43,065 nucleotides of DNA from Candidatus Omnitrophota bacterium (lineage in GTDB: Bacteria > Omnitrophota > Gorgyraeia > Zapsychrales > Fredricksoniimonadaceae). The stretch spans positions 1-43,065 of the forward strand of contig JADFXW010000003.1 in the NCBI GenBank assembly GCA_015233375.1, given 5' to 3'. The stretch's first letter is position 1. Each line of letters starts with the position of its first letter. Shown here piece by piece: positions 3,904-25,646 of the stretch. Below the pieces are notes generated by a model. It had not been told where the DNA came from. It searched no databases and worked only from the letters and a program-made list of their open reading frames with translations. A program made the translations under genes and the position numbers.

Positions 3904-4129
3904 AATCAATTAACCTGTTGTAATTATTTACTTTATAACATCCCCATAATTCTTCCAAAAATATTTTTTTATAAAAATAAAATAAAATTTCTTATTTTTA
4001 TCTATTTGCAATCATGAAGGTTGGAAACGTTTTCTCAAAATTGTCGACGTAATATAAACATTTGCTTTTTAAAAAATATATGCTATTCTTTCAAAGAATC
4101 TTCCTATTAACTTTTTGACAAAATATACT

Positions 4130-7100
4130 ATGAAAACACTACAAAAAACCCTCTGTTGTTGTGTCATTGTTAGTTTCATTGTCACCTCGTTATTCAATCC
4201 TTCAGTATTTGCCCAAAATGTTTCTCAAGAAAATTTAACAAAATTATTGATTACCTTGCCTACGCCAGGCACAAGGGTAGATTTAAGCCCTGCATTTAAT
4301 CCTGTGGTTATCAGGGGTTTAAAAATCCATCCTGAAAACCCATTTTTATTCGATTTTATTGTTGATCCAGGTGATGACCATTTAAAGGGCGAGGGTTTAC
4401 GCACTCCTGTCCAACGCCTGGTTAATTATTTTTTGGCAGCCTTGGCTGTGCCTGAAAAAGACCTTTGGGTTAACTTGTCACCTGTGGAAAGAAACCGCAT
4501 TATCCCGGATTCTCTTAATAAAACAGAACTGGGAAGAGACCTTTTAGCAGAAGATTATATCCTCAAACAAGTAAGCGCTTCTTTAATATATCCTGAAAGC
4601 CATCTGGGGAAAGTTTTTTGGGCCAAGGTTTATGAGGAGGCTTATAAGAAATTTGGCAAAACCCAGGTGCCAGTCAATATTTTTAATAAAGTTTGGATAC
4701 TTCCTGAAAAAGCCTCAGTCTATGAAAAAGGCAACTCCGTTTATATTGTCAACGCGCATTTGAAGGTGATGCTGGATGATGATTTGATGGCCCAAGGTTT
4801 ATTGGGCAAGAAGGGGAGTTCAGGGTCAAAGGTTTCTGGGGTCAAGGATGTTTCAACAGATGTGATGCGCCAGGTGATTTTGCCGGCTATTGACAAAGAA
4901 ATTAATGAGGGGAAAAATTTTGCCCAGGTCAGACAATCTTTTTATTCATTGATATTGGCCCAATGGTACAGGGATGTATTCAAAGCCTCCATCCTTAATA
5001 AAGATTACGCGGGACGTAATAAGGTCGCGGGTATTGATTATAGTGATCCGAAGAATAAAAATGTTATTTACCAGAAATATTTAGCAGCCTATCGTAAAGG
5101 TGTTTTTAATTACATTAAAGACGAAACCAGCCTTTTGACTCAAAGTCCTTTACCAAGGAAGTATTTTTCGGGCGGGTTTGATGGTATGCACCGTGTAGAA
5201 CGCGACTCCGTGTCTTTGCCTGGCACAACAGCCGCAATGGCTTCTTCTGTGAATGTGCGGGTTAATATTGAGCCTTTGACGCAGCATGCATCAGCGGCCA
5301 TGATACCAGCTGAACTTCCACCTGATGACATATGGTTTTCTTTTCAGTTTCCACAAAAGGTTCTTCTCCCGCTATTAATAGATTGTTTAAGTAGTCCGCA
5401 TTATTTTAACAAGGACAAACTTTTTGCTTTTATAGAAAAATATTCACAAAAAGTGGCTGCTCAAAGAAAATCTCCTGTTGAAGGAGCATGGCCTGTGTTA
5501 AAAGCAATTACCCTGTTATCAAAAAGACAAGAAGCTGATTTGGTTGGAATTCTTCAAAAAAGATACCCTGATTTAAAAAATCGCCCTCTATTGGTTGATA
5601 AGATTCTATTAATGAATAATGTGGTTGATAAAGAAAATTGGTTAAAACAGAGGACTCCCCATTTGCAAGGCCGCAGGATATATCTGACCGCAGCAGAAAT
5701 TCATTATTGGTCAGGAGGTTTGGGTCCTGTCATGAAATTCCACGGCAAAGGCATGAAGGATTTAGGCGCAGATGTGTGTTATGTTGAGCCTCGTTATCAA
5801 TTAGGGAAGAATGTGCCAATAGCAAAATATAAAATTGCTGAGGCTTTAGGTTCTAACTATTTACAAAACTTGATAAGTGTGGGATTCTTGCACGAGGTGT
5901 CGTCTTTGGAAGTGAAGCCTAATTTACAAGGGGGAGTTCTTCAGGATTATGAACTGGAACAAGCTGTTGGTCTTGACATTGGTCGTCAGATAGTGGGAGT
6001 TTTGGTCAAGAGTCAATATGCCGAAATTATTGGACAAACTGAACTGCATCTTAGTAGGAATGTCAGTGAAAATGAGATTATATGGAACCTTGGTGAGCAT
6101 CATTTCCCAGAAGAAGTCAAAGTTGCTTTTCAAAAATTAATCCAGCGTTCTAAAAAAGTTTTACAAGATGATGAGGTCTTACGTGCATTAGGCTCTGATA
6201 AAGCCCGTAAATTTTGGAGTATTTTACCTCAAAAGCTTGATTATAGAAACGCTAATATCAAAATACACGATTTAGAGGAAGATGTGGATGAGTTTGTGAT
6301 TGAAATGGGAAACACCGATCCATGGGGAAATAAATTAGAAGGAATGGTTGTTAAAGAAGCTCTTTCATCTGATCCTAAAAAAGCTGAAACAATTTGGGAT
6401 GCTTTGCAAAGAGGTGGGATTATAGATTTCATGGGACAATATGCTGGACAAAGGATGTTTGATGAAACTACGATCAGGAATTTGCTTGATTTGCCGGGAA
6501 TTTCAGATCAAGAAAAGAAAGACGTTTCCGAAATGCTCTTACGAGTTGTGAGAGAAAATCTTAAGCAAGTTAGGGTCAAGGTTGCGAAGGGTGTGGATGA
6601 AAATGGAATCACGGTTTATTTATTTAAAGATGTAGGTTTTGATGGCGTATCATCCTATTACACCAAAATGCTTTATAGTTACCACAAACCTGATAATCCT
6701 ATTAGTCAAGAACAATCCATGGCTTTTATTAATATTGCAACCGCTGAATTGATAAATCGCCTTGAACGTCAAAGACAACAAGATGATCCTGATTGGAAAC
6801 CCGCCATAGTTCATGCCAATGATGGGCAATACGGTCCTTTACAAGCTGTTATGCAGAGCCGGCATGGCCATAATAACTGGATGGCTAATATTATTTACGC
6901 AGCAACAACACATACGTATCAAAATCGTGGTGGAAATGTTGTAGAATTTGGCATTAATACATTTTTGCGTTTTATGTTGAGGGTCAAAGAAAGATTCATT
7001 AGTGCCTTTCGACGTGGATTCAATTGGATTGATTTCACTAGTGGAGGCTTAAGGCTTGCTCATTGGGCTGGTGGTGTTAGTCAAAAACAAAGTAATGATG

Positions 7101-8629
7101 TTAACCCTTTAGACCCTCACACAAATGTGGTGGGGATTACGAATGGGGCTGTCCCTGAAGAAATGGCTGCTGTTTACCGTCAAACATTTAAAGAATTACA
7201 GAAAATTGGGGCTATCCCTCAAGATGCTGATTATGAAAGGCCAACATGGGAAGAAAATGCTAAAACGAAAGAAGCCTGCCGGGTAAAATTGAATAATGCT
7301 GACATTAGGACAGCTAATGGAGGGACATTAAGGGTTGGGAATGGGCCTATCATTGGTTATGCCAGAAGACTGGTTCCTGAGAAGGCAGGAAGAACAAGAA
7401 GAAATCTAGATCGTACTGTTGAGCCTGGGGCTTTTTCTGATACGAATATTAAGAGGATGGTTGCGTTAGGTTATGAAGTGGTTTTATTGGGTAATATTCA
7501 GGGTTCAGATGAAAGCGAGGATCTTGCCGCAGGGTTAAGGAGCTTAGAAAGGGAGATAAGAAGACTTAAACACAACGATCCCAATACATATAAAGGAAAT
7601 TTTCAATTTGTGGAGTCCTTTACCCCACAAGATAAGGTTTTGTTTGAAGCTGCTGTTAATATCCAAATCCAAGACTCTTGGCCTAGCACAGGAGCTTGTG
7701 AGTTTTCTGAGGAAGATTCCACTGCGACCGGGGGCGTTCAAGGCGGAACAGATGAAGGGGTTATTCAACGTCAAGGTATTCCGTTAAAATACCGAGAAAA
7801 AGACAAAGAACACGAACAGCCTGTAGGTCAAACTGTATTTCCTGCTGAGTATACCGAAGATTCATGGTATAACACGGTCTTTAAACCATTAAAGGAGTAT
7901 TGGGACAGAGACCGCGACCATAGAACATTTTATGAACATGCGGCTCTTTCTCCAAGATTAAACCGTATTCAAAACTATCTTTTAACATCAGCGGATTATT
8001 TAATGGAGTATCAAAAGGTTATTGAACTTCAGGAAAGAATTGCTGTTGAGGACACACAAGCGCTGAATGCTATCGTTAATGATCTTCAACAAAATCATGC
8101 AAGCGACATAAATGAAATTGTTTATAATTCGCACGGTATTGGTCCTTTTGGGTTTGATATTTATGGAGTCAGAGCTGAAAATGGGGGGTTACGATCTTTT
8201 CTTGATGCCCGGAATGGTTTAGAAAACACCGTTGGTTATGATGCTTTATTGCATTACACCCAGAGAGGCGATATTCAGAATTATTTAAAAGCTTTATTTC
8301 GCAATACTGGCCAATCTCAACAGATATTATCTCATTGGTTAGATAGAGTAGCAAGAGATGAAGATTTAAGCCTTGATCAAAAAAATCAACGTTTGGGGCA
8401 ATTTATTGAACAGCTGACATTGTCTCTGGAAGTCGCAGGGGTTAATCATGCCATGGCGCCTGGCGGTATCAAATTAGATAATATTGATATTGAAAAGCAT
8501 GGAAGCCTGACTGCCAATCTTGTTACAAATAAGACCCTTGAAGATATGCTTATTCAATCAGCAGGGGTTAGGGGAGATATTATGGCTATTACGGCTATCC
8601 CTAATCTCATGGAATTTATTGTTAAGTAA
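4130..8629 (+). CDS. P1: exported giant protein with conserved head, glycogen synthase/phosphorylase-like GT-B payload and conserved tail
   Basis: Signal peptide MKTLQKTLCCCVIVSFIVTSLFNPSVFAQ. Head motifs are shared with P2-P4 (HPENPFLFDFI, LWVNLSP, GRDLLAEDYILKQ, FNKVWILPEKA, INEGKNFA, PRKYFSGG). Middle motifs are SGGLGPV, IVHANDGQYGP, THTYQNRG, GITNGA and YARRLVPEKAG. Tail is GGIKLDN... An alternative TTG start lies at 4115. Confidence 0.85.
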   Translation: MKTLQKTLCCCVIVSFIVTSLFNPSVFAQNVSQENLTKLLITLPTPGTRVDLSPAFNPVVIRGLKIHPENPFLFDFIVDPGDDHLKGEGLRTPVQRLVNYFLAALAVPEKDLWVNLSPVERNRIIPDSLNKTELGRDLLAEDYILKQVSASLIYPESHLGKVFWAKVYEEAYKKFGKTQVPVNIFNKVWILPEKASVYEKGNSVYIVNAHLKVMLDDDLMAQGLLGKKGSSGSKVSGVKDVSTDVMRQVILPAIDKEINEGKNFAQVRQSFYSLILAQWYRDVFKASILNKDYAGRNKVAGIDYSDPKNKNVIYQKYLAAYRKGVFNYIKDETSLLTQSPLPRKYFSGGFDGMHRVERDSVSLPGTTAAMASSVNVRVNIEPLTQHASAAMIPAELPPDDIWFSFQFPQKVLLPLLIDCLSSPHYFNKDKLFAFIEKYSQKVAAQRKSPVEGAWPVLKAITLLSKRQEADLVGILQKRYPDLKNRPLLVDKILLMNNVVDKENWLKQRTPHLQGRRIYLTAAEIHYWSGGLGPVMKFHGKGMKDLGADVCYVEPRYQLGKNVPIAKYKIAEALGSNYLQNLISVGFLHEVSSLEVKPNLQGGVLQDYELEQAVGLDIGRQIVGVLVKSQYAEIIGQTELHLSRNVSENEIIWNLGEHHFPEEVKVAFQKLIQRSKKVLQDDEVLRALGSDKARKFWSILPQKLDYRNANIKIHDLEEDVDEFVIEMGNTDPWGNKLEGMVVKEALSSDPKKAETIWDALQRGGIIDFMGQYAGQRMFDETTIRNLLDLPGISDQEKKDVSEMLLRVVRENLKQVRVKVAKGVDENGITVYLFKDVGFDGVSSYYTKMLYSYHKPDNPISQEQSMAFINIATAELINRLERQRQQDDPDWKPAIVHANDGQYGPLQAVMQSRHGHNNWMANIIYAATTHTYQNRGGNVVEFGINTFLRFMLRVKERFISAFRRGFNWIDFTSGGLRLAHWAGGVSQKQSNDVNPLDPHTNVVGITNGAVPEEMAAVYRQTFKELQKIGAIPQDADYERPTWEENAKTKEACRVKLNNADIRTANGGTLRVGNGPIIGYARRLVPEKAGRTRRNLDRTVEPGAFSDTNIKRMVALGYEVVLLGNIQGSDESEDLAAGLRSLEREIRRLKHNDPNTYKGNFQFVESFTPQDKVLFEAAVNIQIQDSWPSTGACEFSEEDSTATGGVQGGTDEGVIQRQGIPLKYREKDKEHEQPVGQTVFPAEYTEDSWYNTVFKPLKEYWDRDRDHRTFYEHAALSPRLNRIQNYLLTSADYLMEYQKVIELQERIAVEDTQALNAIVNDLQQNHASDINEIVYNSHGIGPFGFDIYGVRAENGGLRSFLDARNGLENTVGYDALLHYTQRGDIQNYLKALFRNTGQSQQILSHWLDRVARDEDLSLDQKNQRLGQFIEQLTLSLEVAGVNHAMAPGGIKLDNIDIEKHGSLTANLVTNKTLEDMLIQSAGVRGDIMAITAIPNLMEFIVK

Positions 8630-8718
8630 AGAACTCCCCCTTACCCCCTCTTTAATCGCTTCGCAAAGAGGGGGTAAATAATTTTTCCCCCTCTTTAATG
8701 CTTCGTAAAGAGGGGGTA
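8630..8718. repeat. Hairpin repeat family A, double-hairpin copy (intergenic, after P1)
   Basis: GAACTCCCCCTTA, then CCCCCTCTTTAATCGCTTCGCAAAGAGGGGG (8644-8674), then CCCCCTCTTTAATGCTTCGTAAAGAGGGGG (8687-8718). The first hairpin is followed by an A/T-rich run and could terminate P1. Confidence 0.85.
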
Positions 8719-8783: not shown

Positions 8784-10112
8784 ATGTATTTCCTTTATGA
8801 TATTATTTTATTTATATATGCCCTGATTTATTTGCCCTATCTTTTATTGACCCAAAGGGCTTATCCTGGATTTGGGATGCGGTTTGGCTTATTTCCAGGG
8901 TCTATTCAATCACAGATAAAGAACAAGGCCAATATTTGGATTCATGCGGTCAGTGTGGGTGAGGTTTTGGCTTTAGATGGGTTTATTGACCGTTTAGAAA
9001 CAGATTATCCTTCTTATCAGATAATTTTAACAGTTACAACCAAGACAGGGCTGGCTTTGGCGCGTCAACGCCTTAAGGATAAGGCCTTGGTTGTGCCTTC
9101 TCCCATAGATTTTAGCTTTGTTACCCGATATTTTGTCTCGTTCATTTCCCCTAAATGCTATATCGCTGTGGAAACTGAAATTTGGCCTAACCTTTACAGA
9201 CAGTTATCCCGCAAAAATATCCCTATGGTAGTCATTAACGGCAGAATTTCAGATGCTTCTTTTGGGAGGTATAAGGCCGTTTCTTTTCTTTTAAAAAGAT
9301 GCCTCAATCAGGTGACTAACTGGTGCATGCAAAGCCAGAAAGACGCTCAAAGAATCATTGATTTAGGGGCTAATCCTGATAGGGTGCGCGTTTGTGGGAA
9401 TTTAAAATTTGAGGCTGTGTCTCGTGGAGGAGGAAATTCTTTAAAAGATTGCTTCGCTTCGCTCGCAATGACAGAAGACAATGGGCGTTTACCTCATTAT
9501 CTTTGGTGGGTGGCGGGAAGCACGCATCCTGGTGAAGAGGAAATCGTTCTTGATACCTATAATCAAATGATTAAAGATAATCCCCAATGGCGTTTAATGA
9601 TAGCACCGCGGCATATTGAACGTGTGCCACAGATTGTTGATTTGGTGGGGCGTTTTGGATTTAGGGCTGTTAGGTTTTCTTCATTAGAACTGGATTCCTG
9701 CTTGTCGCGAAATGACAAAAAGGAAAACGGGGATGACCATGACAAGATTAAAGAGATACTCATTATAGATACGATAGGGCAATTGCGGTCGTTGTATGCG
9801 CTCGCAGATTTGGTTTTTGTGGGAAAAAGCCTGTGCGGTTTTGGCGGGCAAAATGTGATTGAACCTGCATTTTATGGTAAGGCTATTGTCATTGGACCTC
9901 GTTATGAAAATTTTCGGGATATTGTGGATTGTTTTAAAGAAGCTGGCGCTATTGTTCAAGTCGAAGATGTCCCTGCTTTTAAAACAACGGTGTTCAATTT
10001 ATCACAAGATGTTTCAAAACGTGAACAATTAGGCAAGGCTGCCCAAGGTGTCATTACGGCTAATCAAGGGGCAGTTGGACGGTGTTTAGAGATAATAAAG
10101 AAAATTATGTAA
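8784..10112 (+). CDS. waaA: 3-deoxy-D-manno-octulosonic acid (Kdo) transferase
   Basis: IWIHAVSVGEV near the N-terminus, STHPGEEE, and a C-terminal GT-B half typical of WaaA/KdtA. Carries two in-frame repeat relics (see findings). Confidence 0.92.
   Translation: MYFLYDIILFIYALIYLPYLLLTQRAYPGFGMRFGLFPGSIQSQIKNKANIWIHAVSVGEVLALDGFIDRLETDYPSYQIILTVTTKTGLALARQRLKDKALVVPSPIDFSFVTRYFVSFISPKCYIAVETEIWPNLYRQLSRKNIPMVVINGRISDASFGRYKAVSFLLKRCLNQVTNWCMQSQKDAQRIIDLGANPDRVRVCGNLKFEAVSRGGGNSLKDCFASLAMTEDNGRLPHYLWWVAGSTHPGEEEIVLDTYNQMIKDNPQWRLMIAPRHIERVPQIVDLVGRFGFRAVRFSSLELDSCLSRNDKKENGDDHDKIKEILIIDTIGQLRSLYALADLVFVGKSLCGFGGQNVIEPAFYGKAIVIGPRYENFRDIVDCFKEAGAIVQVEDVPAFKTTVFNLSQDVSKREQLGKAAQGVITANQGAVGRCLEIIKKIM
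9444..9473 (+). repeat. Hairpin repeat family C copy inside the waaA coding sequence, in frame
   Basis: AAAGATTGCTTCGCTTCGCTCGCAATGACA, translated as KDCFASLAMT. Matches 42768-42797 at 26 of 30 positions by hand alignment. Confidence 0.75.
9690..9723 (+). repeat. Degenerate CTGGATTCC...AATGACA-type repeat relic inside waaA, in frame
   Basis: CTGGATTCCTGCTTGTCGCGAAATGACAAAAAGG, translated as LDSCLSRNDKK. It shares CTGGAT(T/C)CC and ATGACAAA ends with the intergenic hairpin at 34203-34234. Confidence 0.45.
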
Positions 10113-10154: not shown

Positions 10155-11267
10155 ATGAGTCAATTTATGCTTTCAATCATGCAAGGTCAACGGCGGGATA
10201 TTATTGCTTGTTTGGTGATTGCTTTGCTTATGCCCTTGACCTTGCTTTATGCTTTAGGCGTTTTTTGTCATCGTTTATTTTATCGTTTCAAGGGTGTTTA
10301 TAAAGCGCCTTTGCCTGTGATTAGTATTGGGAATATCACCGTTGGAGGCACGGGTAAAACGCCTTTGGTGGTGTGGGTGGCCCAGGTTTTAAAGGATAAA
10401 GGGCTGAAAAGTGTTGTTTTAACACGTGGGCATATGCCTCAAGAGGGTCAACTCAGTGATGAGGCGCTTATGATGACGGAACAATTGCCTGATGTGCCTG
10501 TTTTATCAGGGGCGGATCGCATCAAGAATATAAAAAATAATAGTTTGTCTAGCAACGTCTATATTTTAGATGATGGCTTTCAACATTGGAAAATCCAGAG
10601 GGATTTGAATATACTGCTGATAAATGCGGCTAATCCATTTGGTAATGGGCATTTATTGCCTGCAGGTATTTTACGAGAAGGGCTTGGGGCTTTAAAGAGG
10701 GCGGATGTTATTGTCTTGACAAAAACTGATCAGGCAGGGGATATCAAAGCTTTATATAATAAGATACATCAAATAAATCCTTCTGTCCTTGTTATTGAAA
10801 GCTGTTATCAACAACCGCAAATAGTGGATGTTTTTTCTAGGGAACTCGTAAAAAAACTCCCCCTAACCCCCTCTTTAAAAAAAGAGGGGGGATTTATAGG
10901 GAAATCCTCTTTTTCAAAAATAGGGAGAAAAGGGATTTCCTATGGTACTGTATTAGCTTTTTGCGCTATTGCAGACCCTGCTTCTTTTGAATTTCAGCTA
11001 AGAAAAGTCTTCATCGCTCATGATATACAGATATTCAACTTTATGGATCATCATGTTTATACCAAGGAAGATGTTTTAAAAATCACTGAATCAGCAAGAG
11101 ATAATAACATAGCAACACTCGTTACAACACATAAAGATGCTGTTAAACTGTATCAATTCAAGGATATTTTTAAAGGATTTCGTTTGGTGTATATCTCTGC
11201 TCCAATAGAAATAACTAAAGGGTCGCATGAATTTGTTCAAAAAATCAATTCAATTTGCAGCTATTAA
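10155..11267 (+). CDS. lpxK: Tetraacyldisaccharide 4'-kinase
   Basis: ISIGNITVGGTGKTP (P-loop), LTRGH and ILDDGFQH are LpxK hallmarks. Contains an in-frame family A repeat insertion of about 100 nt. Confidence 0.9.
   Translation: MSQFMLSIMQGQRRDIIACLVIALLMPLTLLYALGVFCHRLFYRFKGVYKAPLPVISIGNITVGGTGKTPLVVWVAQVLKDKGLKSVVLTRGHMPQEGQLSDEALMMTEQLPDVPVLSGADRIKNIKNNSLSSNVYILDDGFQHWKIQRDLNILLINAANPFGNGHLLPAGILREGLGALKRADVIVLTKTDQAGDIKALYNKIHQINPSVLVIESCYQQPQIVDVFSRELVKKLPLTPSLKKEGGFIGKSSFSKIGRKGISYGTVLAFCAIADPASFEFQLRKVFIAHDIQIFNFMDHHVYTKEDVLKITESARDNNIATLVTTHKDAVKLYQFKDIFKGFRLVYISAPIEITKGSHEFVQKINSICSY
10841..10940. repeat. Hairpin repeat family A, double-hairpin copy inserted in frame in lpxK
   Basis: AACTCCCCCTAACCCCCTCTTTAAAAAAAGAGGGGGG, then GGAAATCC-TCTTTTTCAAAAATAGGGAGAAAAG-GGATTTCC. 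Translated as ELVKKLPLTPSLKKEGGFIGKSSFSKIGRKGIS with no stop codon. Confidence 0.8.
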
Positions 11268-13194
11268 ATCGATAGCTAACCTTTTTAATTGTCTGCCCAT
11301 GGGGCTTAACCTTTGGATAGGAAGATGTATAGGGCATCTTGTTTATTTTTTCCTTTCTCGTAAAAGAAGGGTGGTGTATGCCAATTTAAAGACCGTGTTT
11401 TCCCAGACCCATTCTCCTTCACAAATCCGTCGAATGACCAAGGAGGTGTCGGTCAACTTCTTTCAAAGTATTATAGAGTTTTTATGTTTGCCCAAAATCA
11501 AACGTTTAGGGTTTGAAAAATTTGTGACACTGGAGGGAAAAGAAAATATTGAACAAGCGCTGTCCAAAGGCAAGGGAGTCATCTTTTTGGCGGTCCATTC
11601 CGGGAGTTGGGAATTGGCGAGTATCATAGGCAGCCTGACAAACAGCACCTATCATATAGTCGCCAATGAACAACCTAAAATGCAGTCATTAGCCAAGATG
11701 CTTGATGAATACCGGACCATTGTTGGGGCGCATGTGATAAAAGCAGGAAGTGCCACCAAAGAAATCATTCAAGCCCTCAAAGCCAATGAGATAGTTTCTT
11801 TGGTTTTGGATCAAGGGGGAAGAACAGGGATGGTTTTGCCATTTTTAGGTAAAACAGCGTCCCTGTCAACAGGGGCCATTCGCCTTGCTTTAAAATATGG
11901 ATGTGCTGTTTGTCCCGTATGGATTGAGCGGCAGAATAATCGCAGGCATTTATTGCGTGTTTTTCCTGCCATGGATATGAGCGTTTCAGGTGATTTAAAA
12001 AAAGATTTACGAGATAACATGCTCAAGGCCACAGCCTTTTTCGAGAAAACTTTAAGAGAAAAACCTTTAGAATATATGTGGTTTTATAAGGTCTTTAAGT
12101 ATTCGACAAATAAAAGGATTGTGATTATTGATGATGGAAGAACCGGCCATTTAAGGCAATCCCAATCTGTGAGCAGGCATTTAACTGAAATTTTACAGAA
12201 AAAAGGAATAACTGTTGAAGAGAATACGGTATTTTTTGAATGGCGAAATCTTTGGGCTGCGCATTTATTTTCATTTTATTCCTTTTTAGCGCAATATTAC
12301 CCCTTATTAAGAAATGAAGACAATTTAAAACTGTTTCTGAAAAATCAGTCTTACAATAATTTGATAAAACAGAAAGCTGATTTTATCATTTCTTGCGGAT
12401 TTCAAGGGGCAGGGATCAATTTTATACTGAGTCAAAATCATTTGGCCCAATCTATTGGCATATTAACGTCTGGATTATTATCAAAGGACCATTTTAAGGC
12501 GCTTGTATGGCCTGCTCATCGCAAACCCTTTGCCTCAAAATGCACCTGTATTATTAGACCTAAGGTGTCACCAAATTTGATAAACCCATCCTACTTAAAA
12601 GAACAGGGAGAGGGTCTTATCAAACATTATTCACATCTAAGAGGCAATATGCGCCTGAAATTTGGCGTTTTGATAGGTGGGCATGCCAAAGGGATTAAAT
12701 TAAATGAAAAAGCAATACACGAATTATTAAGCCAGATCAAACAAGCTGCAGAGCATTATAACGCGGACATATTATTAACCACATCGAGGAGAACACCCAA
12801 ACCCATTGAACAATTAATACTCAGGGAATTAAAAAATTTCCAACGCCTCGGTCTTTGCATCATTGCGAATCAACGCAATGTGCCTCAAGCCGTAGGCGGC
12901 ATCTTGTATTTATCAGACCTTGTCATTGTTTCAGGAGAAAGCATATCCATGGTTTCAGAAGCGCTCAGTTCTAAGAAAAGGACCATTGTTTTTCATCCAC
13001 AGGGAGAATATGGGGTGAAACCAGCTAATAAATATGAAGATTTTGTATTGAAATTAAATGATGAAGGGTATCTAATGATTAGCTCAGTGGGCAATATAAA
13101 AACAACCATCGCGCAATTATTGGGTCAAAAATTCAAGTTAAAATCTTTGGATGATGAAAACATTATTAAAGAAGGATTGGCGCGGATTATTTAA
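11227..13194 (+). CDS. Fusion of an LpxL/HtrB-type lipid A late acyltransferase with an ELM1/GtrOC1-like putative glycosyltransferase domain
   Basis: The N-terminal ~295 aa resemble lauroyl/myristoyl acyltransferases (RKRRVVYANLKTVF, AVHSGSWE, DQGGR). The C-terminal part starts IVIIDDGRTGHLRQSQSV, typical of the Mito_fiss_Elm1-type family. Overlaps the lpxK end by 41 nt. Confidence 0.75.
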   Translation: MNLFKKSIQFAAIKSIANLFNCLPMGLNLWIGRCIGHLVYFFLSRKRRVVYANLKTVFSQTHSPSQIRRMTKEVSVNFFQSIIEFLCLPKIKRLGFEKFVTLEGKENIEQALSKGKGVIFLAVHSGSWELASIIGSLTNSTYHIVANEQPKMQSLAKMLDEYRTIVGAHVIKAGSATKEIIQALKANEIVSLVLDQGGRTGMVLPFLGKTASLSTGAIRLALKYGCAVCPVWIERQNNRRHLLRVFPAMDMSVSGDLKKDLRDNMLKATAFFEKTLREKPLEYMWFYKVFKYSTNKRIVIIDDGRTGHLRQSQSVSRHLTEILQKKGITVEENTVFFEWRNLWAAHLFSFYSFLAQYYPLLRNEDNLKLFLKNQSYNNLIKQKADFIISCGFQGAGINFILSQNHLAQSIGILTSGLLSKDHFKALVWPAHRKPFASKCTCIIRPKVSPNLINPSYLKEQGEGLIKHYSHLRGNMRLKFGVLIGGHAKGIKLNEKAIHELLSQIKQAAEHYNADILLTTSRRTPKPIEQLILRELKNFQRLGLCIIANQRNVPQAVGGILYLSDLVIVSGESISMVSEALSSKKRTIVFHPQGEYGVKPANKYEDFVLKLNDEGYLMISSVGNIKTTIAQLLGQKFKLKSLDDENIIKEGLARII

Positions 13195-13199
13195 GTGAG

Positions 13200-13383
13200 G
13201 TTTATGGACACTTTAAAAAGTTTTTTCCGAAACGGGATATTTTCGCCGTCGTCTACGGTTTGCGATAATTGTTTTCTAAAGCATCCTTAGTATATTTGGA
13301 AAACAATTATCGCAAAGCCTTGACGACTTTTGGCGAAAAATCCCTTAATGTTTCGGAAAAAACTTTTTAAAGTGTCCATAAAC
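13200..13383. repeat. 184-nt long palindromic element, family B, copy 1
   Basis: GTTTATGGACACTTTAAAAAG...CTTTTTAAAGTGTCCATAAAC is a near-perfect inverted repeat across its whole length. The second copy is at 25000-25183. Confidence 0.95.
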
Positions 13384-13409
13384 ACGCATCGCGTGAATTT
13401 AAAAAACAT

Positions 13410-15497
13410 ATGAATATCTTGCAAATTTTACCAGAATTAAATGTTGGCGGTGTTGAGACAGGCACTGTTGATTTGGCTAAATTTTTAGTGTTGGGTGGGC
13501 ATCAGTCTATTGTTGTTTCCAATGGCGGGGCCATGGTTGCCCAGTTGCAATCAGAAGGATCTAAACATTACACCTTGCCTGTAAATAAAAAGAATTTATT
13601 TTCCATGATTCATTGCGTTGGGAAATTAGTCGACATTATTAAAAAAGAGAAGATTGATATTGTGCATGCCCGTTCCCGCGTGCCTGCATGGATCGCATTT
13701 TTCGCTTGCCGTCAAACGGAAGCCCATTTTGTGACAACCTGTCATGGTTATTATTCGACCCATTTATTTAGCCGGGTGATGGGGTGGGGAAAGCTTATTA
13801 TTGCTATCAGTGAAATTATAGGCCGTCACATGGTCCAGGATTTAAAGACCCCAGCCCAAAATATCAGGGTCATCCCAAGAAGTGTTGATATAGACAAGTT
13901 TAATCTCCCGCATAAGGCAAAAACAGATAAAAATTCTTTTACAGTGGTCATGATAGGGCGTATCACGCCCCTTAAAGGCCATCCTTATTTTTTAAAAGCC
14001 ATGGCTCGTGTGATCGCCTACTTGCCAGGGGTCAAGGTTAAGATTATAGGGGATGCTCCTGTTAAAAAACAAACTTATAAAGAAGAACTCCAGTTACTAA
14101 CAAAACGTTTAGGAATCAGTTCAAATGTAGAATTCATGGGAAATCGCCGCGATATCCCTGAACTGTTAAGCAAGGCTGATTGTTTGGTCCTTTCCACTAT
14201 AACGCAGGAAGCCTTTGGAAGGGTTATTATTGAAGCCCAGGCCGCGGGTGTCCCGGTTGTGGCAACAAAGGTGGGAGGGGTTGTTGAGATTATTGACCAT
14301 GAAAAAACAGGCCTTTTGGTTGAGCCAAAAGAAATTGACGCGATGGCCAATGCGGTATTGCGTATTTTAAAAGATCCCCAATTGAGCGCCAATCTTGTTA
14401 AAGAAGCAAAAAAGAAAATAGAGGAAAAATACACCCTGGCGCAAATGGCCCGTTCTACTATTGCTGTTTATGACCAGGTTATGAAGTCTACAAAAATATT
14501 AATTATCAAAATGACGGCTTTAGGTGACGTTATTTTATCTACCGCTGCCTTTAAAGCGATCCGCCATCAATTTCCTGATGCTCAAATTGTTTGTTTAACC
14601 TCACCGCTGGCAAGGCCTGTGGTAGATACTTGCCCCTTTATCAATGAAGTTGTTACCTGTGACCCTCAAGATAAAAGTTTTAAGTCTATATGCCAAAAGG
14701 CCCAAGAACTTCGTCATTATCATTTTGATAAGGTCATTGATTTACAAAACAACCGTATCAGTCATTGGCTAAGCTTTTTAGCATTTCCTAAGGAATCCTA
14801 TGGTTACCATAACGGGAAATTTTCTTTCCTTTTATCAAAGAAAATAAAAAATAATATTAAAAATATTTCTCCTGTGGAACATCAATTCAGGATTTTACAG
14901 ATGACGGGTATTCATTATGATCCAGCCTTCAGGCTTGAATTAAAGACCCATCCTAAAGATGATTTGTATATCGATAAACTCCTTGATAGTGAGTGGCTTG
15001 GGGGAGGACAGGTTTTTGTGGGGATGAACATCAGTGCCTCAAACCTTTGGCCTTCAAAAAATTGGCCTTTGGAATATATGGCTAAACTTTGTGATATTTT
15101 AGGCCAAAAAAATGTTCGGGTCATTCTAACAGGAGAAAGTAAGGACAGCGTTTTGGGCAGAAAATTGTTGAGTATGGCCAAAGCAAAACCCGCTAATTTC
15201 ATTGGCAAAACCAATATTATGCAGTTGGCGGTACTCATCAAACGTTGTAAAGTCTTTATTTCACAAGATTCTGCGCCCTTGCATGTGGCGGCAAGTCAGC
15301 ATGTCCCTGTACTTGCTCTTTTTGGGCCTACAGATCCCAAACGGCACATGCCGCCAGTGGATAACAGCGCTATATTACATAGGTCTTTAAAGTGCGCGCC
15401 TTGCTATTCAGGTATTTGTAAAATCAATACGTATGCCTGCATGAAGGAAATATTACCTGAAGAGGTGGCTCAAAAGATTATGCAGTTGATTAAATAA
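13410..15497 (+). CDS. Fusion of a GT4 glycosyltransferase (N-terminal) with a GT9 heptosyltransferase-like domain (C-terminal)
   Basis: N-terminal half has MNILQILPELNVGGVETG, a STITQEAFGRVIIEAQAAG motif and EKTGLLV (GT4 E-x7-E type). C-terminal half has KILIIKMTALGDVILSTAAFKAI and ISQDSAPLHVAA (GT9). Confidence 0.85.
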   Translation: MNILQILPELNVGGVETGTVDLAKFLVLGGHQSIVVSNGGAMVAQLQSEGSKHYTLPVNKKNLFSMIHCVGKLVDIIKKEKIDIVHARSRVPAWIAFFACRQTEAHFVTTCHGYYSTHLFSRVMGWGKLIIAISEIIGRHMVQDLKTPAQNIRVIPRSVDIDKFNLPHKAKTDKNSFTVVMIGRITPLKGHPYFLKAMARVIAYLPGVKVKIIGDAPVKKQTYKEELQLLTKRLGISSNVEFMGNRRDIPELLSKADCLVLSTITQEAFGRVIIEAQAAGVPVVATKVGGVVEIIDHEKTGLLVEPKEIDAMANAVLRILKDPQLSANLVKEAKKKIEEKYTLAQMARSTIAVYDQVMKSTKILIIKMTALGDVILSTAAFKAIRHQFPDAQIVCLTSPLARPVVDTCPFINEVVTCDPQDKSFKSICQKAQELRHYHFDKVIDLQNNRISHWLSFLAFPKESYGYHNGKFSFLLSKKIKNNIKNISPVEHQFRILQMTGIHYDPAFRLELKTHPKDDLYIDKLLDSEWLGGGQVFVGMNISASNLWPSKNWPLEYMAKLCDILGQKNVRVILTGESKDSVLGRKLLSMAKAKPANFIGKTNIMQLAVLIKRCKVFISQDSAPLHVAASQHVPVLALFGPTDPKRHMPPVDNSAILHRSLKCAPCYSGICKINTYACMKEILPEEVAQKIMQLIK

Positions 15498-15596
15498 AAG
15501 GAACTCCCCCTAAACCCCCTCTTTAAACGCTTCGCAAAGAGGGGGAACGTGCCGTGGAAACTGCATGGCTCCCTCTTCAAAAAAAAGAGGGGGAAT
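15498..15596. repeat. Hairpin repeat family A, double-hairpin copy; the second hairpin contains the SD of the next gene
   Basis: GGAACTCCCCCTAAACCCCCTCTTTAAACGCTTCGCAAAGAGGGGG, then CTCCCTCTTCAAAAAAAAGAGGGGGAATAT, ending 7 nt before the ATG at 15603. Confidence 0.85.
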
Positions 15597-15602
15597 ATAG
15601 AG

Positions 15603-16700
15603 ATGAATATATTATTTCTAACAACACATCTGAACACCGGAGGCATTACCAGTTACCTTTTGACCTTGGGAGAAGATCTGGTCAAAGCGGGGCACCAGGT
15701 TTTTATTGTTTCCAGTGGCGGGGATTGTGAAGAAGGTTTTCTTCAGGCGGGGATGCACCATACCACTATTGATATACGGACCAAATCAGAAGCTTCATTA
15801 AAACTATGGTTAAATGCAGGTAAGATTCAAAATTTAATCCGTAAAGAAAATATCCATATCATTCATGCCCAAACGCGGGTGACCCAGGTGCTTGGGGCTT
15901 TTTTAAGTCAAATAACAGGTGTTAAAATGGTCACCACCTGCCATGGTTTTTTTAAGCCCCGTTGGTTTCGAAAGACATTCCCTTGCTGGGGACAAGGGGT
16001 CATTGCTATCAGTAAACCCGTCTATAATCATTTAAGAGGTGACTTCGGCATCTTGCCGGATCAAATACATCTTATCGCTAATGGTATTGATTTATCTCGT
16101 TTTTCTATGACTAAACCAGATCAAAAACGCCAATTAAGGCAAAAATGGCAGATGGATGATGCGCCTTTAATTGGTATCATCGCAAGGCTCTCTGACGTTA
16201 AAGGGATTGATGTTTTGCTAAAAGGCATGCCGCTTATTTTAAAAGTAATTCCTAAAGCCATGCTTATTATTGCCGGAGAAGGGCCTGATGAAGAGTATTT
16301 GCAAAGAATAACCCGAGATTTATTACTGGAAGATCATGTCCGCTTTATGCCAACAATCAATAAGACCCATGAATTATTAGGGGCCTTTGATGTGTTTGCC
16401 ATGCCCTCGATTATGGAAGGGCTTGGGCTTTCTGTGATTGAGGCTCAGGCGTGTGGGATTCCAGTCGTCGCTTCAAAAGTGGGAGGCTTGATTGATTTGA
16501 TTGAAGATGGGATAAACGGGTATTTGGTCCCAGTTAATGATCCTGAGGCGCTCGCAGGACGTATTATTGATGTTTTAAATACGCCTCAAAAAGCGCAATT
16601 AATGGCAGAAGCGGCCAGAGACGGGGTGGAACAAAATTTTTCAGCCCAACGCATGACTAAAGAAACGATTAAGGTTTATGAAAAATATTCTCGTTGTTAA
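15603..16700 (+). CDS. GT4-family glycosyltransferase
   Basis: MNILFLTTHLNTGGITSY, PSIMEGLGLSVIEAQACGIPVVASKVGG and DGINGYLV. The ATG at 15603 with GAGGGGG upstream is preferred over the GTG at 15549, which lies in the repeat. Confidence 0.85.
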   Translation: MNILFLTTHLNTGGITSYLLTLGEDLVKAGHQVFIVSSGGDCEEGFLQAGMHHTTIDIRTKSEASLKLWLNAGKIQNLIRKENIHIIHAQTRVTQVLGAFLSQITGVKMVTTCHGFFKPRWFRKTFPCWGQGVIAISKPVYNHLRGDFGILPDQIHLIANGIDLSRFSMTKPDQKRQLRQKWQMDDAPLIGIIARLSDVKGIDVLLKGMPLILKVIPKAMLIIAGEGPDEEYLQRITRDLLLEDHVRFMPTINKTHELLGAFDVFAMPSIMEGLGLSVIEAQACGIPVVASKVGGLIDLIEDGINGYLVPVNDPEALAGRIIDVLNTPQKAQLMAEAARDGVEQNFSAQRMTKETIKVYEKYSRC

Positions 16701-20227: not shown

Positions 20228-20268
20228 TAAGAACTCCCCCTAACCCCCTCTTTAACTAAAGAGGGGGG
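20228..20268. repeat. Hairpin repeat family A, single-hairpin copy containing the gspD SD
   Basis: AAGAACTCCCCCTAACCCCCTCTTTAACTAAAGAGGGGGG, ending 12 nt before the ATG at 20281. Confidence 0.85.
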
Positions 20269-20280
20269 AATATATTAATT

Positions 20281-22076: not shown

Positions 22077-23771
22077 ATGGAAAAAACACCTCTTTTTTTA
22101 GGTCAAATCCTTGTTCATCATAACATTATTAACTCAACACAGCTGGATCAAGCATTAGCTGAACAAAAAAAAACAGGTGAGTTATTAGGGCACGCATTGC
22201 TGCGTATGGGCTTTGTCAAAAAAGAACAAGCCTTTTTACCTTTATTGGCTGAAAAACTAAACGTTGAGTTAGTATTCTTAAAATCCATCGCTATTTCGCA
22301 AGAAGCTTTGAAACGTCTTTCCATCAAGGCATTAAACCATTATAAAGTTTTTCCTTTTAAATTTGAGAATGACACATTGACAGTGGCTATGTCCAAGCCT
22401 CAGGATATCGCTGTCTTGGATGACTTGAGTATGATGGCCCATGCCAGGATTAAGCCTGCCTTGGCCTCTGAGGCAGATATTATTGAAGCTATCCGTATCT
22501 ATTACGGGCTTGGGGCAGAGACCATTGAGAAAATGATGTCCGGCACTGAAATGATGGAGCAACAAACCCCGGTGATTCAGGCTATTGATGAACTTTCCTC
22601 TGAAGCTTCTATCAGCCAATTTTTAAATCAAATTTTATCTCAAGCTCATCGAGATTCAGCTACGGACATTCATATTGAGCCCTTTGGGGATGAATTACGT
22701 ATCCGTTACCGCATTGATGGAGAATTGTATGATGTTCAAGTGCCAGAAAATATTCGTTTCTTTCATGAAGCATTGATTTCTCGCATCAAGATATTGTCTA
22801 ATTTAAATATCGCTGAAAAACGCCTGCCGCAGGATGGACGTTTTAAGGTCAAGGTGTCTAATAGCGATTTGGATTTGCGTGTTTCTTTTTTACCAAGCGC
22901 TTTTGGCGAAAGCTGTGTTATCAGGCTTTTGAACACCTTTAGATTGTATGATTTTGATGATTTAGGAATTGTGGGGGATGAGCGAAAATTATTGAATATC
23001 TTAATAAATAAGCCGCATGGCATTATATTTCTGACAGGGCCTACAGGAAGCGGTAAGACAACGACGTTATATTCGTGTTTAGCACTTATCAACGCAGAAG
23101 ACACTAAAATCATCACGGTTGAGGATCCTATTGAATATCAACTCAAAGGCATCGTTCAAATCCAGGCCAATGCCAACATTGGGTTGACCTTTGCCACTGC
23201 TTTGCGTTCTATTTTACGCAATGATCCTGATGTTATCATGATAGGTGAGGTGCGAGATTTTGAAACCGCCCAGATTGCGATACAAATGTCTTTAACCGGG
23301 CATCTGGTGTTTTCTACATTACATACCAATGACGCTGTCTCAGGGATCACTCGTTTAATTGATATAGGCATTGAGCCTTATTTAATCTCAACCTCTGTGG
23401 ACTGCTTTATAGCCCAGCGATTAGTGAGATTATTATGCCCTGCGTGTAAAAGCAAAACACGCTTAACTGAAGAAATGAAAAAAGAATTTGATGTGACCAG
23501 CCAGATATCTGAAAATCATGTGATATATGAAGCCGTTGGATGTGAGGCTTGCCGGATGACAGGTTATAGCGGACGTCAGGCTATTTGTGAATTTTTAATT
23601 CTAGATGAAAAAGTTAAAGAGATGATAACACTTCGCTCAACAAGCCGGGAAATTAAACAGTATGTTGCTTCCAAAGGGATGAAGACATTAAGACAGCATG
23701 GATTAGAAAAGGTCCTTTTAGGGTTAACCAGCCCCAGTGAAGTTTTACGGGTTACTGGGGATATTGGATGA
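22077..23771 (+). CDS. gspE: Type II secretion / type IV pilus assembly ATPase (GspE/PilB family)
   Basis: N-terminal T2SSE_N/MshEN-like domain, Walker A GPTGSGKTTTLYS, Asp box, Walker B IMIGEVRD, His box, and a CxxC...CxxC zinc motif. Confidence 0.93.
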   Translation: MEKTPLFLGQILVHHNIINSTQLDQALAEQKKTGELLGHALLRMGFVKKEQAFLPLLAEKLNVELVFLKSIAISQEALKRLSIKALNHYKVFPFKFENDTLTVAMSKPQDIAVLDDLSMMAHARIKPALASEADIIEAIRIYYGLGAETIEKMMSGTEMMEQQTPVIQAIDELSSEASISQFLNQILSQAHRDSATDIHIEPFGDELRIRYRIDGELYDVQVPENIRFFHEALISRIKILSNLNIAEKRLPQDGRFKVKVSNSDLDLRVSFLPSAFGESCVIRLLNTFRLYDFDDLGIVGDERKLLNILINKPHGIIFLTGPTGSGKTTTLYSCLALINAEDTKIITVEDPIEYQLKGIVQIQANANIGLTFATALRSILRNDPDVIMIGEVRDFETAQIAIQMSLTGHLVFSTLHTNDAVSGITRLIDIGIEPYLISTSVDCFIAQRLVRLLCPACKSKTRLTEEMKKEFDVTSQISENHVIYEAVGCEACRMTGYSGRQAICEFLILDEKVKEMITLRSTSREIKQYVASKGMKTLRQHGLEKVLLGLTSPSEVLRVTGDIG

Positions 23772-23772
23772 T

Positions 23773-24990
23773 ATGCCACAATTCTCTTATAAAGCCAAGG
23801 CTGGTCCTCAAAATATAACAACTGGTTTTATTGAGGCTAATTCTGCGTCTGAAGCGGTGACAAAATTAATAAATGCAGGCAAGACACCTATTGATGTCAA
23901 ATTATCCACGATCTCAACAGGCTCCACATTAACAAAATCAAAGATTCCTAACATTAGTATCCCGCGCATGGCCTTATATCAATGGACAAGGCAATTGGCA
24001 GATTTGCAGGATGCAGGGGTCCCGTTAGCTCGATCCATGCAGTTATTGGGGCATCAGCGTCAATTTCCTGAAATGATTAAGATTATTGAGGCCATAAAGA
24101 TGGTTTTACAACAAGGTGGGAGTCTTTCAGCAGCCTTAACAGCCTATCCTCATGTTTTTCCCTCCATGTATGTTAATACAATTAAAGCAGCAGAAGCGAG
24201 CGGAAAAATGCCTTTGGTATTAAACCGATTAGCCCAGTTTCTTGAAGTGGACATGATACAAGAGTCAAAGGTCAAGTCCAGTTTACTGTATCCTGCTATC
24301 ATATTAATAGTCGGCTTTTTGACTATTTTTGTCCTTTTATCTTTTGTTTTACCACGAGTGACCTTAATGTTCGAAGATTTTGATACCCAACTTCCATTAT
24401 TAACACAAATCATCATTTCTGTGAGTCAAATATTTGCGCAGTTTTGGTGGTTAATGGCGCTTTCTGTGGCTGGGGCTATTGTTTGGATGCGTTGGTGGAT
24501 TAAAACAAATAATGGAAAAGCCCAGATGGATGCTTTCTTACTAAAAGTCCCATTATTAAAAACCTTTATTCAAAACACTCAGCTGAGCCGATTTGCGCGG
24601 ACACTGGCCATGTTATTAGAAAGTGGGGTGCCCATTGTGAATGCTCTTGAATCTGTAGTGCTTGTGGTGGATAATAAAGCGTTACAGCAAGAGGTCTATA
24701 AAATGACCGACAGGATAAAATCAGGGATGGGGCTTGCTGAGGCGGTTAAACAAAGTCCTCTTTTTCCTGAAATGACGGTTGATTTAATTGCTGTTGGTCA
24801 AGAAGCCGGGAAATTAGAAAAAGGGCTTTATAAATTAGCTGATTATAGTGAACGTCTAAGCCAGGATATGGCCCAAACTTTTACAACTATTTTAGGGCCT
24901 GCGGTTTTGGTTTTGGTTGTCGGTATAGTCGGATTTATGATTGTGGCTATGTTATTGCCTATGTTTCAGATGAATATGATCATTAAATAA
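23773..24990 (+). CDS. gspF: Type II secretion / type IV pilus platform protein (GspF/PilC family)
   Basis: Two GspF repeats and three TM helices. The ATG at 23773 lies 1 nt after the gspE stop, and the ORF-track start at 23737 overlaps gspE. Confidence 0.9.
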   Translation: MPQFSYKAKAGPQNITTGFIEANSASEAVTKLINAGKTPIDVKLSTISTGSTLTKSKIPNISIPRMALYQWTRQLADLQDAGVPLARSMQLLGHQRQFPEMIKIIEAIKMVLQQGGSLSAALTAYPHVFPSMYVNTIKAAEASGKMPLVLNRLAQFLEVDMIQESKVKSSLLYPAIILIVGFLTIFVLLSFVLPRVTLMFEDFDTQLPLLTQIIISVSQIFAQFWWLMALSVAGAIVWMRWWIKTNNGKAQMDAFLLKVPLLKTFIQNTQLSRFARTLAMLLESGVPIVNALESVVLVVDNKALQQEVYKMTDRIKSGMGLAEAVKQSPLFPEMTVDLIAVGQEAGKLEKGLYKLADYSERLSQDMAQTFTTILGPAVLVLVVGIVGFMIVAMLLPMFQMNMIIK

Positions 24991-24999
24991 GATGGTGAC

Positions 25000-25183
25000 G
25001 TTTATGGACACTTTAAAAGCTTTTTTCCGAAACGGGATATTTTTGCCGTCGTCTTCGGTTTACGACAATTGTTTTCTAAAGCATCCTTAGTATATTTAGA
25101 AAACAATTATCGTAAAGCCTTGACGACTTTTGGCAAAAAATCCCTTAATGTTTCGGAAAAAAGCTTTTAAAGTGTCCATAAAC
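25000..25183. repeat. 184-nt long palindromic element, family B, copy 2 (between gspF and gspG)
   Basis: Same length and orientation as 13200-13383, with 11 differences by hand alignment. Confidence 0.95.
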
Positions 25184-25208
25184 ACGAATCAATTGAAAGG
25201 AAATTTAT

Positions 25209-25646
25209 ATGATTAAAAATTATCGATATGGTTTTACGTTAATTGAAATAATGCTTGTTGTCATTATTATTGGCATATTGGCAGCCATGCTTGTTCCTAA
25301 TATAGCAGGGAGGAGCGACCAGGCTCGGAAAATCGCAGCCCGGACAGACATAGAGTCAAACTTGTCAACAGCGCTTGATTTATTTCATATGGATACCAGC
25401 CATTATCCAACAACAGAACAAGGGTTAAATGCCTTGTTAACAAAACCCACAGCGTCCCCAATTCCGGATCAATGGAATGGCCCTTATTTAAAGAAAAAGA
25501 AAATTTTTAAAGATCCGTGGGGACATAACTATGTGTACGTCTCTCCAGGCACGCATAATACTGAAACCTATGACCTTTCTTCCTTGGGTCCTGATGGGGT
25601 GGAAAGCAGCGATGATATTACGAATTGGGGAAATGAAGAAAAATAA
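25209..25646 (+). CDS. gspG: Major pseudopilin (GspG family)
   Basis: Prepilin leader and GFTLIEIMLVVIIIGILAAM, followed by DPWGHNYVYVSPG...YDLSSLGPDG, typical of GspG. Confidence 0.9.
   Translation: MIKNYRYGFTLIEIMLVVIIIGILAAMLVPNIAGRSDQARKIAARTDIESNLSTALDLFHMDTSHYPTTEQGLNALLTKPTASPIPDQWNGPYLKKKKIFKDPWGHNYVYVSPGTHNTETYDLSSLGPDGVESSDDITNWGNEEK

Follow-up and report, generated by a model that had tools for sequence, protein, structure and literature searches.

The DNA analysed here, a stretch of 43,065 nucleotides of the Candidatus Omnitrophota contig JADFXW010000003.1 (assembly GCA_015233375.1; hereafter the window), harbours two copies of a 184-nt imperfect palindrome, each of which lies between two genes and folds into a single long hairpin. 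The element is best explained, with a probability of about 0.6, as a small non-coding foldback repeat of the Omnitrophota, similar to the miniature transposable elements with inverted repeats that are known as MITEs, whose hairpin is kept by template switching, by selection, or by both. It is dispersed over at least five unrelated intergenic sites in at least three compositionally distinct genomes and is probably mobile; it does not represent a new kind of RNA gene but joins the known hairpin repeats of bacteria. The window is a single metagenome contig, and several of the probabilities given below are our own estimates made after the data had been seen.

Two copies of a long hairpin

The palindromes of the two copies, both found on the forward strand of the window, are as follows:

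13200..13383, + strand: copy A, imperfect palindrome of 184 nt comprising inverted repeats I8 and I13; covariance-model score 217 bits
25000..25183, + strand: copy B, imperfect palindrome of 184 nt comprising inverted repeats I7 and I15; covariance-model score 212 bits

The copies align without a gap, in the same orientation and with 94% identity, and the fold of each confirms the one long imperfect hairpin that had been recognised in the original prediction, which was made by reading the sequence alone. The hairpin consists of one continuous stem of 76 pairs closed by a 14-nt apical loop. Its predicted stability amounts to -104.2 kcal/mol in copy A (z -19.9 against dinucleotide shuffles) and -98.8 kcal/mol in copy B (z -18.6), and none of 200 dinucleotide shuffles matched the stability of either copy. 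The palindrome, which is AT-rich (34-35% GC), begins and ends with GTTTATG...CATAAAC. In copy A the outer stem is perfect over 34 bp, in keeping with the 34-nt perfectly complementary termini listed as I7 and I8, and the 3' arm bears TTTT and TTAAT bulges.

A scripted comparison found 11 differences between the copies (13219, 13220, 13244, 13255, 13262, 13266, 13298, 13313, 13335, 13363 and 13364), eight of which form four compensated pairs, exactly as had been counted by hand. The partners in the minimum free energy fold are 13219/13364, 13220/13363, 13244/13335 and 13262/13313; both sides of each are altered and Watson-Crick pairing is retained. The hand assignment of the other three differences was likewise reproduced in full: 13255 falls within an internal loop, the change at 13298 converts U.G to U-A, and the T to C change at 13266 leaves a C.A mismatch with 13309 in copy B. 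When 11 substitutions were placed randomly with the observed mix of transitions and transversions kept, four or more compensated pairs arose at a frequency of 5e-7 (2,000,000 random placements).

Further copies in other Omnitrophota

The invariant 19-mer terminus of the element was searched against genome and metagenome collections, and a 16-mer against viral contigs. Metagenome contigs yielded three more loci (L115, L024 and L010), all of them from other Omnitrophota, which brings the number of loci to five. The scan of a species-representative genome collection with the 19-mer returned only eight single chance matches and that of viral contigs with the 16-mer 74 chance matches and no copy, while a BLASTN search of the repeated unit against plasmids and phages gave no match. 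The copies outside the window are the following:

L115 9781-9961 (same contig as L018): full copy, between a radical-SAM/BATS gene (stop codon 5 nt before the element) and trxB (39 nt after it)
L024 7163-7343, minus strand: full copy, 49 nt downstream of tRNA-Arg(CCT)
L010 6320-6366, minus strand: collapsed copy, 7 nt downstream of tRNA-Arg(TCG) at 6374-6449
L009, trxB locus: partial copy at the contig end, which stops in the loop

Full copies share 92-96% identity, and those of different hosts (93-96%) are no less alike than A and B. The L010 copy keeps only the outermost stem of approximately 12 bp (ATGGACAC...GTGTCCAT) together with the full 3' tail described below, a collapse consistent with deletion between short direct repeats (ACTTT) in the two arms; the element can thus be reduced by internal deletion. 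With a covariance model of four copies, a search of 486 kb from Omnitrophota and other loci recovered the known copies and the L010 remnant (E = 0.08), but no additional diverged copy. At all five loci the element has the same orientation as the flanking genes or tRNA; the probability of this pattern is approximately 0.06, and it is suggestive but weak.

The window and L115/L024 cannot be assigned to one organism. The GC content of the window is 38.9% (37.8-40.3% in its parts) versus 45.5-46.1% in L115, L024 and L010, and its tetranucleotide correlation with L115 and L024 is 0.88, against 0.95-0.98 within the window and 0.94 between L115 and L024. In addition, a C-rich hairpin repeat that is abundant in the window (see below) does not occur in 31 kb of sequence from L115 and L024, nor in the other Omnitrophota loci examined for it.

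Since long palindromes disturb assembly, it was considered whether the agreement of the arms had been produced by a de Bruijn assembler merging k-mers with their reverse complements, a concern that applies to a window consisting of one metagenome contig. Some disturbance is evident: L028 is wholly palindromic, the L009 contig breaks off in the loop, and two others, L116 and L140, begin within the element. The assembled copies, however, keep their bulges and A.C mismatches, and independent assemblies from JGI and ENA give an identical L115 copy, the 3' part of which is identical in a Logan assembly as well. Moreover, the longest perfectly complementary run does not exceed 39 nt and the longest run common to A and B is 31 nt, which is below the final k that assemblers usually reach (as far as the k values can be inferred). 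An artefactual origin of the symmetry is thus highly improbable. The copies of L028 (1-4275) were rejected as independent evidence, as the whole contig is a noisy self-palindrome of the L024 locus; with its many small indels it appears to be an assembly or amplification artefact centred on a gene for a tetratricopeptide repeat protein approximately 0.65 kb upstream of the element.

Mirrored and one-sided changes in the stem

Pairing was analysed in five full copies, namely A and B of the window and those of L115, L139 and L024. Five of the 76 pairs are altered on both sides (21/165, 25/161, 45/137, 63/114 and 67/110). None of 500 column shuffles reached five such pairs, and a slide of the partner by one to three columns abolished the signal. 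The pair 13266/13309, which is T-A in copy A and C.A in copy B, is C-G in L115, L139 and L024, and the mismatch of copy B would accordingly appear as the intermediate of a T-A/C-G exchange. The most striking part of the stem is the A-run/T-run zone after position 19, which reads:

Copy A: AAAAAG TTTTTT
Copy B: AAAAGC TTTTTT
L115: AAAAG TTTTTT
L139: AAAAG TTTATT
L024: AAAAG TTTTT

These are five different sequences, yet the 3' arm complements them exactly in four of the copies, which implies mirrored insertions and deletions (+A/+T, +C/+G and -T/-A) and a mirrored T>A/A>T transversion. The sole exception is L115, in which the partner C is missing and a G bulge remains. A mirrored transversion and mirrored indels would hardly be expected from independent mutations if selection acted only weakly against one bulge in a stem of 76 pairs.

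The stem has also been changed on one arm only: A.C mismatches are present in L115 (11/175) and L024 (65/112) and a C.A mismatch in copy B, the terminal pair departs to G.A and G.U in L139 and L024, and a T bulge of L024 adds to the G bulge of L115. Such one-arm events are about as numerous as the mirrored ones. Pairing is therefore kept much more often than would be expected by chance, though not without exception. In every copy the TTTT and TTAAT bulges remain unchanged, as does the internal loop; that such large asymmetries have stayed as they are fits either short conversion tracts or selection for those very features.

According to the original prediction, the pattern argues for selection on the folded structure rather than for simple decay of a repeat. 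The second half of this statement holds, because the preservation of pairing is non-random by both simulations and is extended by the new copies, so that decay alone is insufficient. The first half is weakened, in that mirrored changes can arise by arm-to-arm template switching without selection on each substitution. Template switching during replication has been described to yield multibase compensated changes in one step (PMC8794818), and compensatory changes are common in REPIN hairpins (PMC3116915) and occur among bcr1 copies (PMC3184786). The findings named beforehand as contrary to the prediction were encountered by half: the additional copies also carry changes that break pairing, about as many as mirrored ones. 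The element is moreover a dispersed insertion that is absent from the corresponding spacers of relatives. That the structure is preserved is right; to read it as an RNA or cruciform under selection goes beyond what is established, and most of the pattern is explained by a mutational mechanism combined with mobility.

The repeated unit and its insertion sites

The repeated unit exceeds the palindrome. A direct-repeat finder delimited family D1 as 13195-13397 versus 24995-25197, 203 nt with 92% identity. The unit is MITE-like in architecture, with a 5-nt left piece, the 184-nt palindrome and a one-sided tail of 14-19 nt, approximately 203 nt in all. Its parts are:

13195..13397, + strand: full unit of copy A (GTGAG, palindrome, ACGCATCGCGTGAA); family D1; flanks also common to L024 and L010
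24995..25197, + strand: full unit of copy B (GTGAC, palindrome, ACGAATCAATTGAA); family D1 and pairwise alignment
13384..13402, + strand: one-sided 3' tail of copy A (ACGCATCGCGTGAATTTAA), with a possible mini-hairpin ACGC-atc-GCGT
13190..13194, + strand: TTTAA left of copy A, which includes the upstream stop codon and recurs at 13398-13402; candidate 5-bp duplication

The tail (13384-13402) is identical at 19 of 19 positions in the collapsed copy of L010 and at 16 of 19 in L024, and because it is conserved on one side in other genomes, the element is polar. The unit extends beyond the palindrome termini by 5 nt on the left and by 14-19 nt on the right, and these outer ends are not inverted repeats. 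As the boundaries of a mobilising partner, GTTTATGGACACTTTAAAAG in inverted orientation or the polar ends GTGAG...GTGAATTTAA would come into question.

The pentamer TTTAA stands directly left of the element in copy A, L115, L139 and L009, as well as in the empty site of L118, and closes the tail on the right in copy A, L024 and L010; in L024 and L010 a further TTTAA or TTTTA occurs leftward of the element. The result is TTTAA on both sides in copy A and L024, TTTTA/TTTAA in L010, and TTTAA on the left only in L115, L139 and L009. Copy B has no clear TTTAA duplication, and for L115 the alternative would be TCAAG...TCAAG. L115 and L024 also share the 14-mer CTGTCAAGGCGTGG, to the right of the palindrome in the former (9966-9979) and to the left in the latter (7355-7368), and the 10-mer TTTAATCAAG, directly left of the palindrome in L115 (9771-9780) and 43 nt upstream in L024 (7378-7387). 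The palindrome may have inserted into, or next to, a second short repeat represented by these sequences.

Orthologous spacers are filled in some lineages and empty in others, which identifies the element as a dispersed insertion. Between gspF and gspG, where copy B resides, the spacers of three relatives (L104, L130 and L134) measure 12, 21 or 116 nt and lack the element. The radical-SAM/trxB spacer is filled in L115, in L139/L140 (TrxB 88% identical) and in L009, with the same left junction ending in GCTATTTAATCRAG, and is empty in L118 (19 nt) and L138 (12 nt), with no trace of the element. L117, with a TrxB 93% identical, has no palindrome in this spacer either; positions 183-205 of L117 read GGTGAC followed at once by ACGCATTC, so that the flank motifs of copy A, copy B and L024 are directly adjacent. 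The match of 11 of 12 flank-motif positions has a probability of approximately 4e-4 over the positions examined, as estimated after the match had been seen. The junction is either a footprint, left when the palindrome was lost completely, or a specific target that is still unoccupied; the former is favoured because the collapsed L010 copy demonstrates that the palindrome can be deleted, while the different left flank of L115 (TCAAG) weighs against settling the matter in this way.

Two observations concern the genes upstream of this spacer. In L117 the gene also ends with the repeated GAATTAAGR. In L139 the radical-SAM gene carries a 30-nt in-frame insertion (approximately 449-478, encoding RPTIAPGMRV), and its last five codons, which follow the insertion, are identical in sequence to those of L115.

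Gene context in the window

The genes that flank the two copies are:

11227..13194, + strand: lipid A acyltransferase/Elm1-like fusion (PF03279, PF06258); stop codon 5 nt before the copy A palindrome
13410..15497, + strand: GT4-GT9 (heptosyltransferase) glycosyltransferase fusion (PF00534, PF01075); start 26 nt after the copy A palindrome
23737..24990, + strand: gspF, type II secretion protein F (PF00482); stop codon 9 nt before the copy B palindrome
25209..25646, + strand: gspG, type II secretion major pseudopilin (PF08334, PF07963); start 25 nt after the copy B palindrome

Both genes next to copy A are domain fusions. As all four are located on the + strand, both copies would be transcribed in the sense orientation within operons. 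The named homologues of GspF come from metagenome-assembled genomes of Candidatus Omnitrophica/Omnitrophota, the best non-self match being 69% identical; there is no exact-protein match on record for GspG or GspF of the window. The element itself has no coding capacity, with stop codons in all six frames and a longest open stretch of 59 codons that lacks a start codon, and a composite of its open six-frame peptides scored nothing in a protein search. No gene for a RAYT (Y1 transposase) is present among the ORFs (open reading frames) of the window.

Promoter, terminator and RNA families

Copy A contains no sigma-70-like promoter by scan. The three asymmetries of its 3' arm can be aligned as TTGACG-18-CTTAAT (13320-13349), but this candidate was rejected, as its -10 hexamer lacks the conserved A at the second position. 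An intrinsic terminator was rejected as well: there is no U-tract, the hairpin being followed by ACGCATCG in copy A and ACGAATCA in copy B, and the terminator scan found only a weak 5-bp internal hairpin. A search of the window against Rfam, proposed together with the original prediction, gave no match at gathering thresholds; in E-value mode only generic long-hairpin models of plant microRNA precursors appeared, with 30-51 bits versus thresholds of 80-211.

The two strands fold about equally well, with an advantage of 2-5 kcal/mol for the plus strand in four copies and of 4 kcal/mol for the minus strand in another. Likewise, the G.U and A.C departures are balanced and leave no signature of a transcribed strand. 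Together with the lack of an Rfam family, this leaves the suggestion of a constraint acting on RNA unsupported.

Conservation at the trxB locus and a possible host constraint

At the trxB locus the element is more conserved than its surroundings. L115 and L139 are identical at 175 of its 181 positions (96.7%), whereas the identity of trxB itself amounts to 83.5% over all nucleotides, 65% at third codon positions and 53% at 4-fold sites (72 of 136), and that of the upstream gene to 81%. Over the 5' half of the element, L115 and L009 agree at 99 of 101 positions (98%), the well-aligned part of the flank being approximately 77-89% identical per 200-nt window. The excess is unexpected; a resident selfish copy should decay neutrally.

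These data leave room for the view that the hairpin is a cis-acting structured RNA selected by the host, perhaps of mobile origin but now under purifying selection, which serves between cistrons, in one orientation, in processing, stability or translation. In its favour are the 97-98% identity at one locus in L115, L139 and L009 next to flanking genes of approximately 80-84% and 4-fold sites of 53%, the element identity of at least 94% between hosts whose GspF proteins are at most 69% identical, the conservation of loop, bulges and one-sided tail besides the pairs, the common orientation at all five loci relative to transcription, and the non-random preservation of pairing. On the other hand, the spacers are empty in the nearest relatives, including L117, whose TrxB is nearer to that of L115 than is the TrxB of L139; the contexts are unrelated (lipopolysaccharide synthesis, type II secretion, trxB and tRNA-Arg); the orientation bias is weak; and neither a strand-specific signature nor a promoter, a terminator or an Rfam match supports an RNA function. 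In addition, the 52 nt left of the element are identical in L115 and L139 at 51 positions, with one difference at 16 third positions where approximately 5.5 would be expected (binomial probability approximately 0.01, own calculation); in L117 these codons vary freely, and over the first 150 nt of trxB the similarity is not raised. This suggests a recently exchanged tract rather than long-term constraint and provides some evidence that the filled allele may have passed recently between the L115 and L139 lineages. Altogether, a host-selected RNA seems a possible but unlikely account of the element.

A related and still less probable proposal is that of a polar, orientation-specific RNA or DNA module of approximately 200 nt, the whole sequence of which would be under purifying selection in the Omnitrophota, and which would spread between lineages as mobile DNA and insert without classical duplication at a GTGAS^ACGCAT-like site. 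It would rest on the 97-98% identity at the shared locus, where the neighbouring 4-fold sites are saturated, and on the identity of at least 94% between the hosts with divergent GspF.

Several facts weigh against a MITE-like mobile repeat and have to be set beside those in its favour. A scan of the flanks for direct repeats yielded no target-site duplication that could be fitted to all loci. Neither a transposase nor a larger element with these termini was found in the window, and the terminus scans of genome, metagenome and viral collections brought up only short elements or chance matches. The loci recovered number only five. The need for a hairpin does not by itself account for the conserved bulges, loop and polar tail, and the excess conservation at the trxB locus needs host-level constraint, conversion from other copies, or recent exchange of alleles.

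Comparison with recombination sites

A near-perfect palindrome with extrahelical bases confined to one arm brings to mind folded attC sites, and the element could in principle act as DNA, its cruciform or folded strand serving a recombinase or another DNA-binding protein (in an attC-like, dif-like or replication-related manner). The equal folding of both strands agrees with this, as does the spacer of L117, in which GTGAS and ACGCAT are adjacent without a palindrome, like an unoccupied specific target; a tyrosine recombinase gene is also present in the window (38595-39773). The latter, however, lies 13 kb from copy B and matches generic Xer-type models only, far below their cut-offs, with no integron integrase model matched. 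The termini GTTTATG...CATAAAC depart from the core consensus of attC, RYYYAAC/GTTRRRY. Instead of forming arrays, the copies are separated by 11.8 kb or belong to different contigs, and the flanking genes are not cassettes but syntenic core genes of the type II secretion and lipopolysaccharide operons. An integron attC site was rejected on these grounds, and a DNA-level site of any of these kinds is very unlikely.

Comparison with known hairpin repeats

The MITE-like reading agrees with the general properties of this class: the element is small (203 nt) and non-coding, has inverted termini, is dispersed, and is present or absent at orthologous sites. Among known systems, bcr1 of the Bacillus cereus group (approximately 155 bp) is transcribed, has a long double-stranded fold and is bordered by 5-bp direct repeats (Delihas 2011, PMC3184786). 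Like bcr1, the present element is a small non-coding dispersed repeat with a distribution not conserved between relatives and with compensatory changes among copies; it differs in belonging to another phylum and in its one-sided tail, its TTTAA duplication is only a candidate, and its transcription is inferred.

The RAYT-mobilised REPINs are likewise hairpin-forming, non-autonomous and extragenic, and they persist in lineages and are more conserved than expected. They consist, however, of two short REP palindromes and a spacer, with approximately 71 bp between invariant 16-mers, and this architecture was rejected for the present element, which is one continuous AT-rich stem with no REP-like sub-hairpins.

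QMITE2 of Coxiella burnetii possesses terminal inverted repeats of 23-29 bp and a core of 113-145 bp (PMC10969869); its transcript is predicted to form one full-length hairpin of -113 kcal/mol and is found mainly in the 3' untranslated regions of ORFs (PMC10969869). Size and full-length hairpin are similar, but QMITE2 has clear direct repeats of 7-9 bp, and there is no sequence similarity or relationship of the hosts.

Correia elements of Neisseria (CREE/NEMIS) and the ERIC elements of enterobacteria are intergenic, measure 100-160 bp and are co-transcribed with their neighbours (PMC10969869, PMC3184786, PMC2649163). The paired inverted repeats of Correia elements are cut by RNase III, and ERIC alters the access of RNase E and the decay of mRNA (PMC10969869, PMC3184786, PMC2649163). 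Both duplicate TA and occur in both orientations, and Correia elements pair only at their termini, whereas the element described here pairs over its whole length and has one orientation at all five loci.

Proposed origin and maintenance

According to the MITE-like reading, the element would spread, or would have spread, as mobile DNA by means of a transposase or recombinase supplied in trans. During replication, short template switches at the palindrome may transfer changes from one arm to the other; alternatively or additionally, well-pairing copies may be those that propagate or persist. Resident copies would then gather the mismatches and bulges seen in single arms. The position of the element within operons, in the sense orientation, makes its co-transcription most likely, in which case the RNA would contain a double-stranded stem of approximately 75 bp. 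Enzymes of the RNase III type might cut this stem and so separate the cistrons or alter their stability, as reported for Correia and ERIC.

Other repeats of the window

A second repeat family consists of C-rich hairpins of the form AACTCCCCCT(A/T)ACCCCCTCTTTAA...AAAGAGGGGG and was located at 8629-8716, 10852-10918, 15507-15621 and 20229-20269. The pattern CCCCCTCTTTAA, with one mismatch allowed at most, occurs nine times in the window, versus 0.46 expected (families D3, D5 and D7). The copy at 10852-10918 lies inside the lpxK ORF (10155-11267) and is read in frame (...KKLPLTPSLKKEGGFIGKSSFSK...), and the Pfam match of LpxK takes up 342 residues against 321 positions of the profile; the copy looks like a repeat inserted in frame, as is known of the palindromic elements of Rickettsia.

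In the region 35945-43015, the tyrosine recombinase gene mentioned above lies between two large inverted paralogues, 35945-38503 (+) and 39800-43015 (-), whose 5' regions form the inverted repeats I1-I5 with 74-78% complementarity. The paralogues around the recombinase possibly constitute an invertible or recombining gene pair. Two further paralogues are located at 4115-8629 and 29797-34167 (families D2, D4 and D6).

Significance

The element is a clean example from nature of arms that change in step within a long hairpin, mirrored insertions and deletions included. It also illustrates that compensated changes in palindromic DNA are not proof of a selected RNA, because arm-to-arm template switching can produce them. 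The Omnitrophota are a candidate phylum known only from metagenomes, and a literature search on that phylum found no such repeat described; here the element can serve as a marker for strain typing and for breaks in assemblies. If constraint at the level of the host is true, the hairpin would be a mobile one that has been recruited into the regulation of operons, and if the proposal of a polar selected module holds, it would represent a hitherto undescribed kind of regulatory hairpin, both mobile and self-symmetrising.

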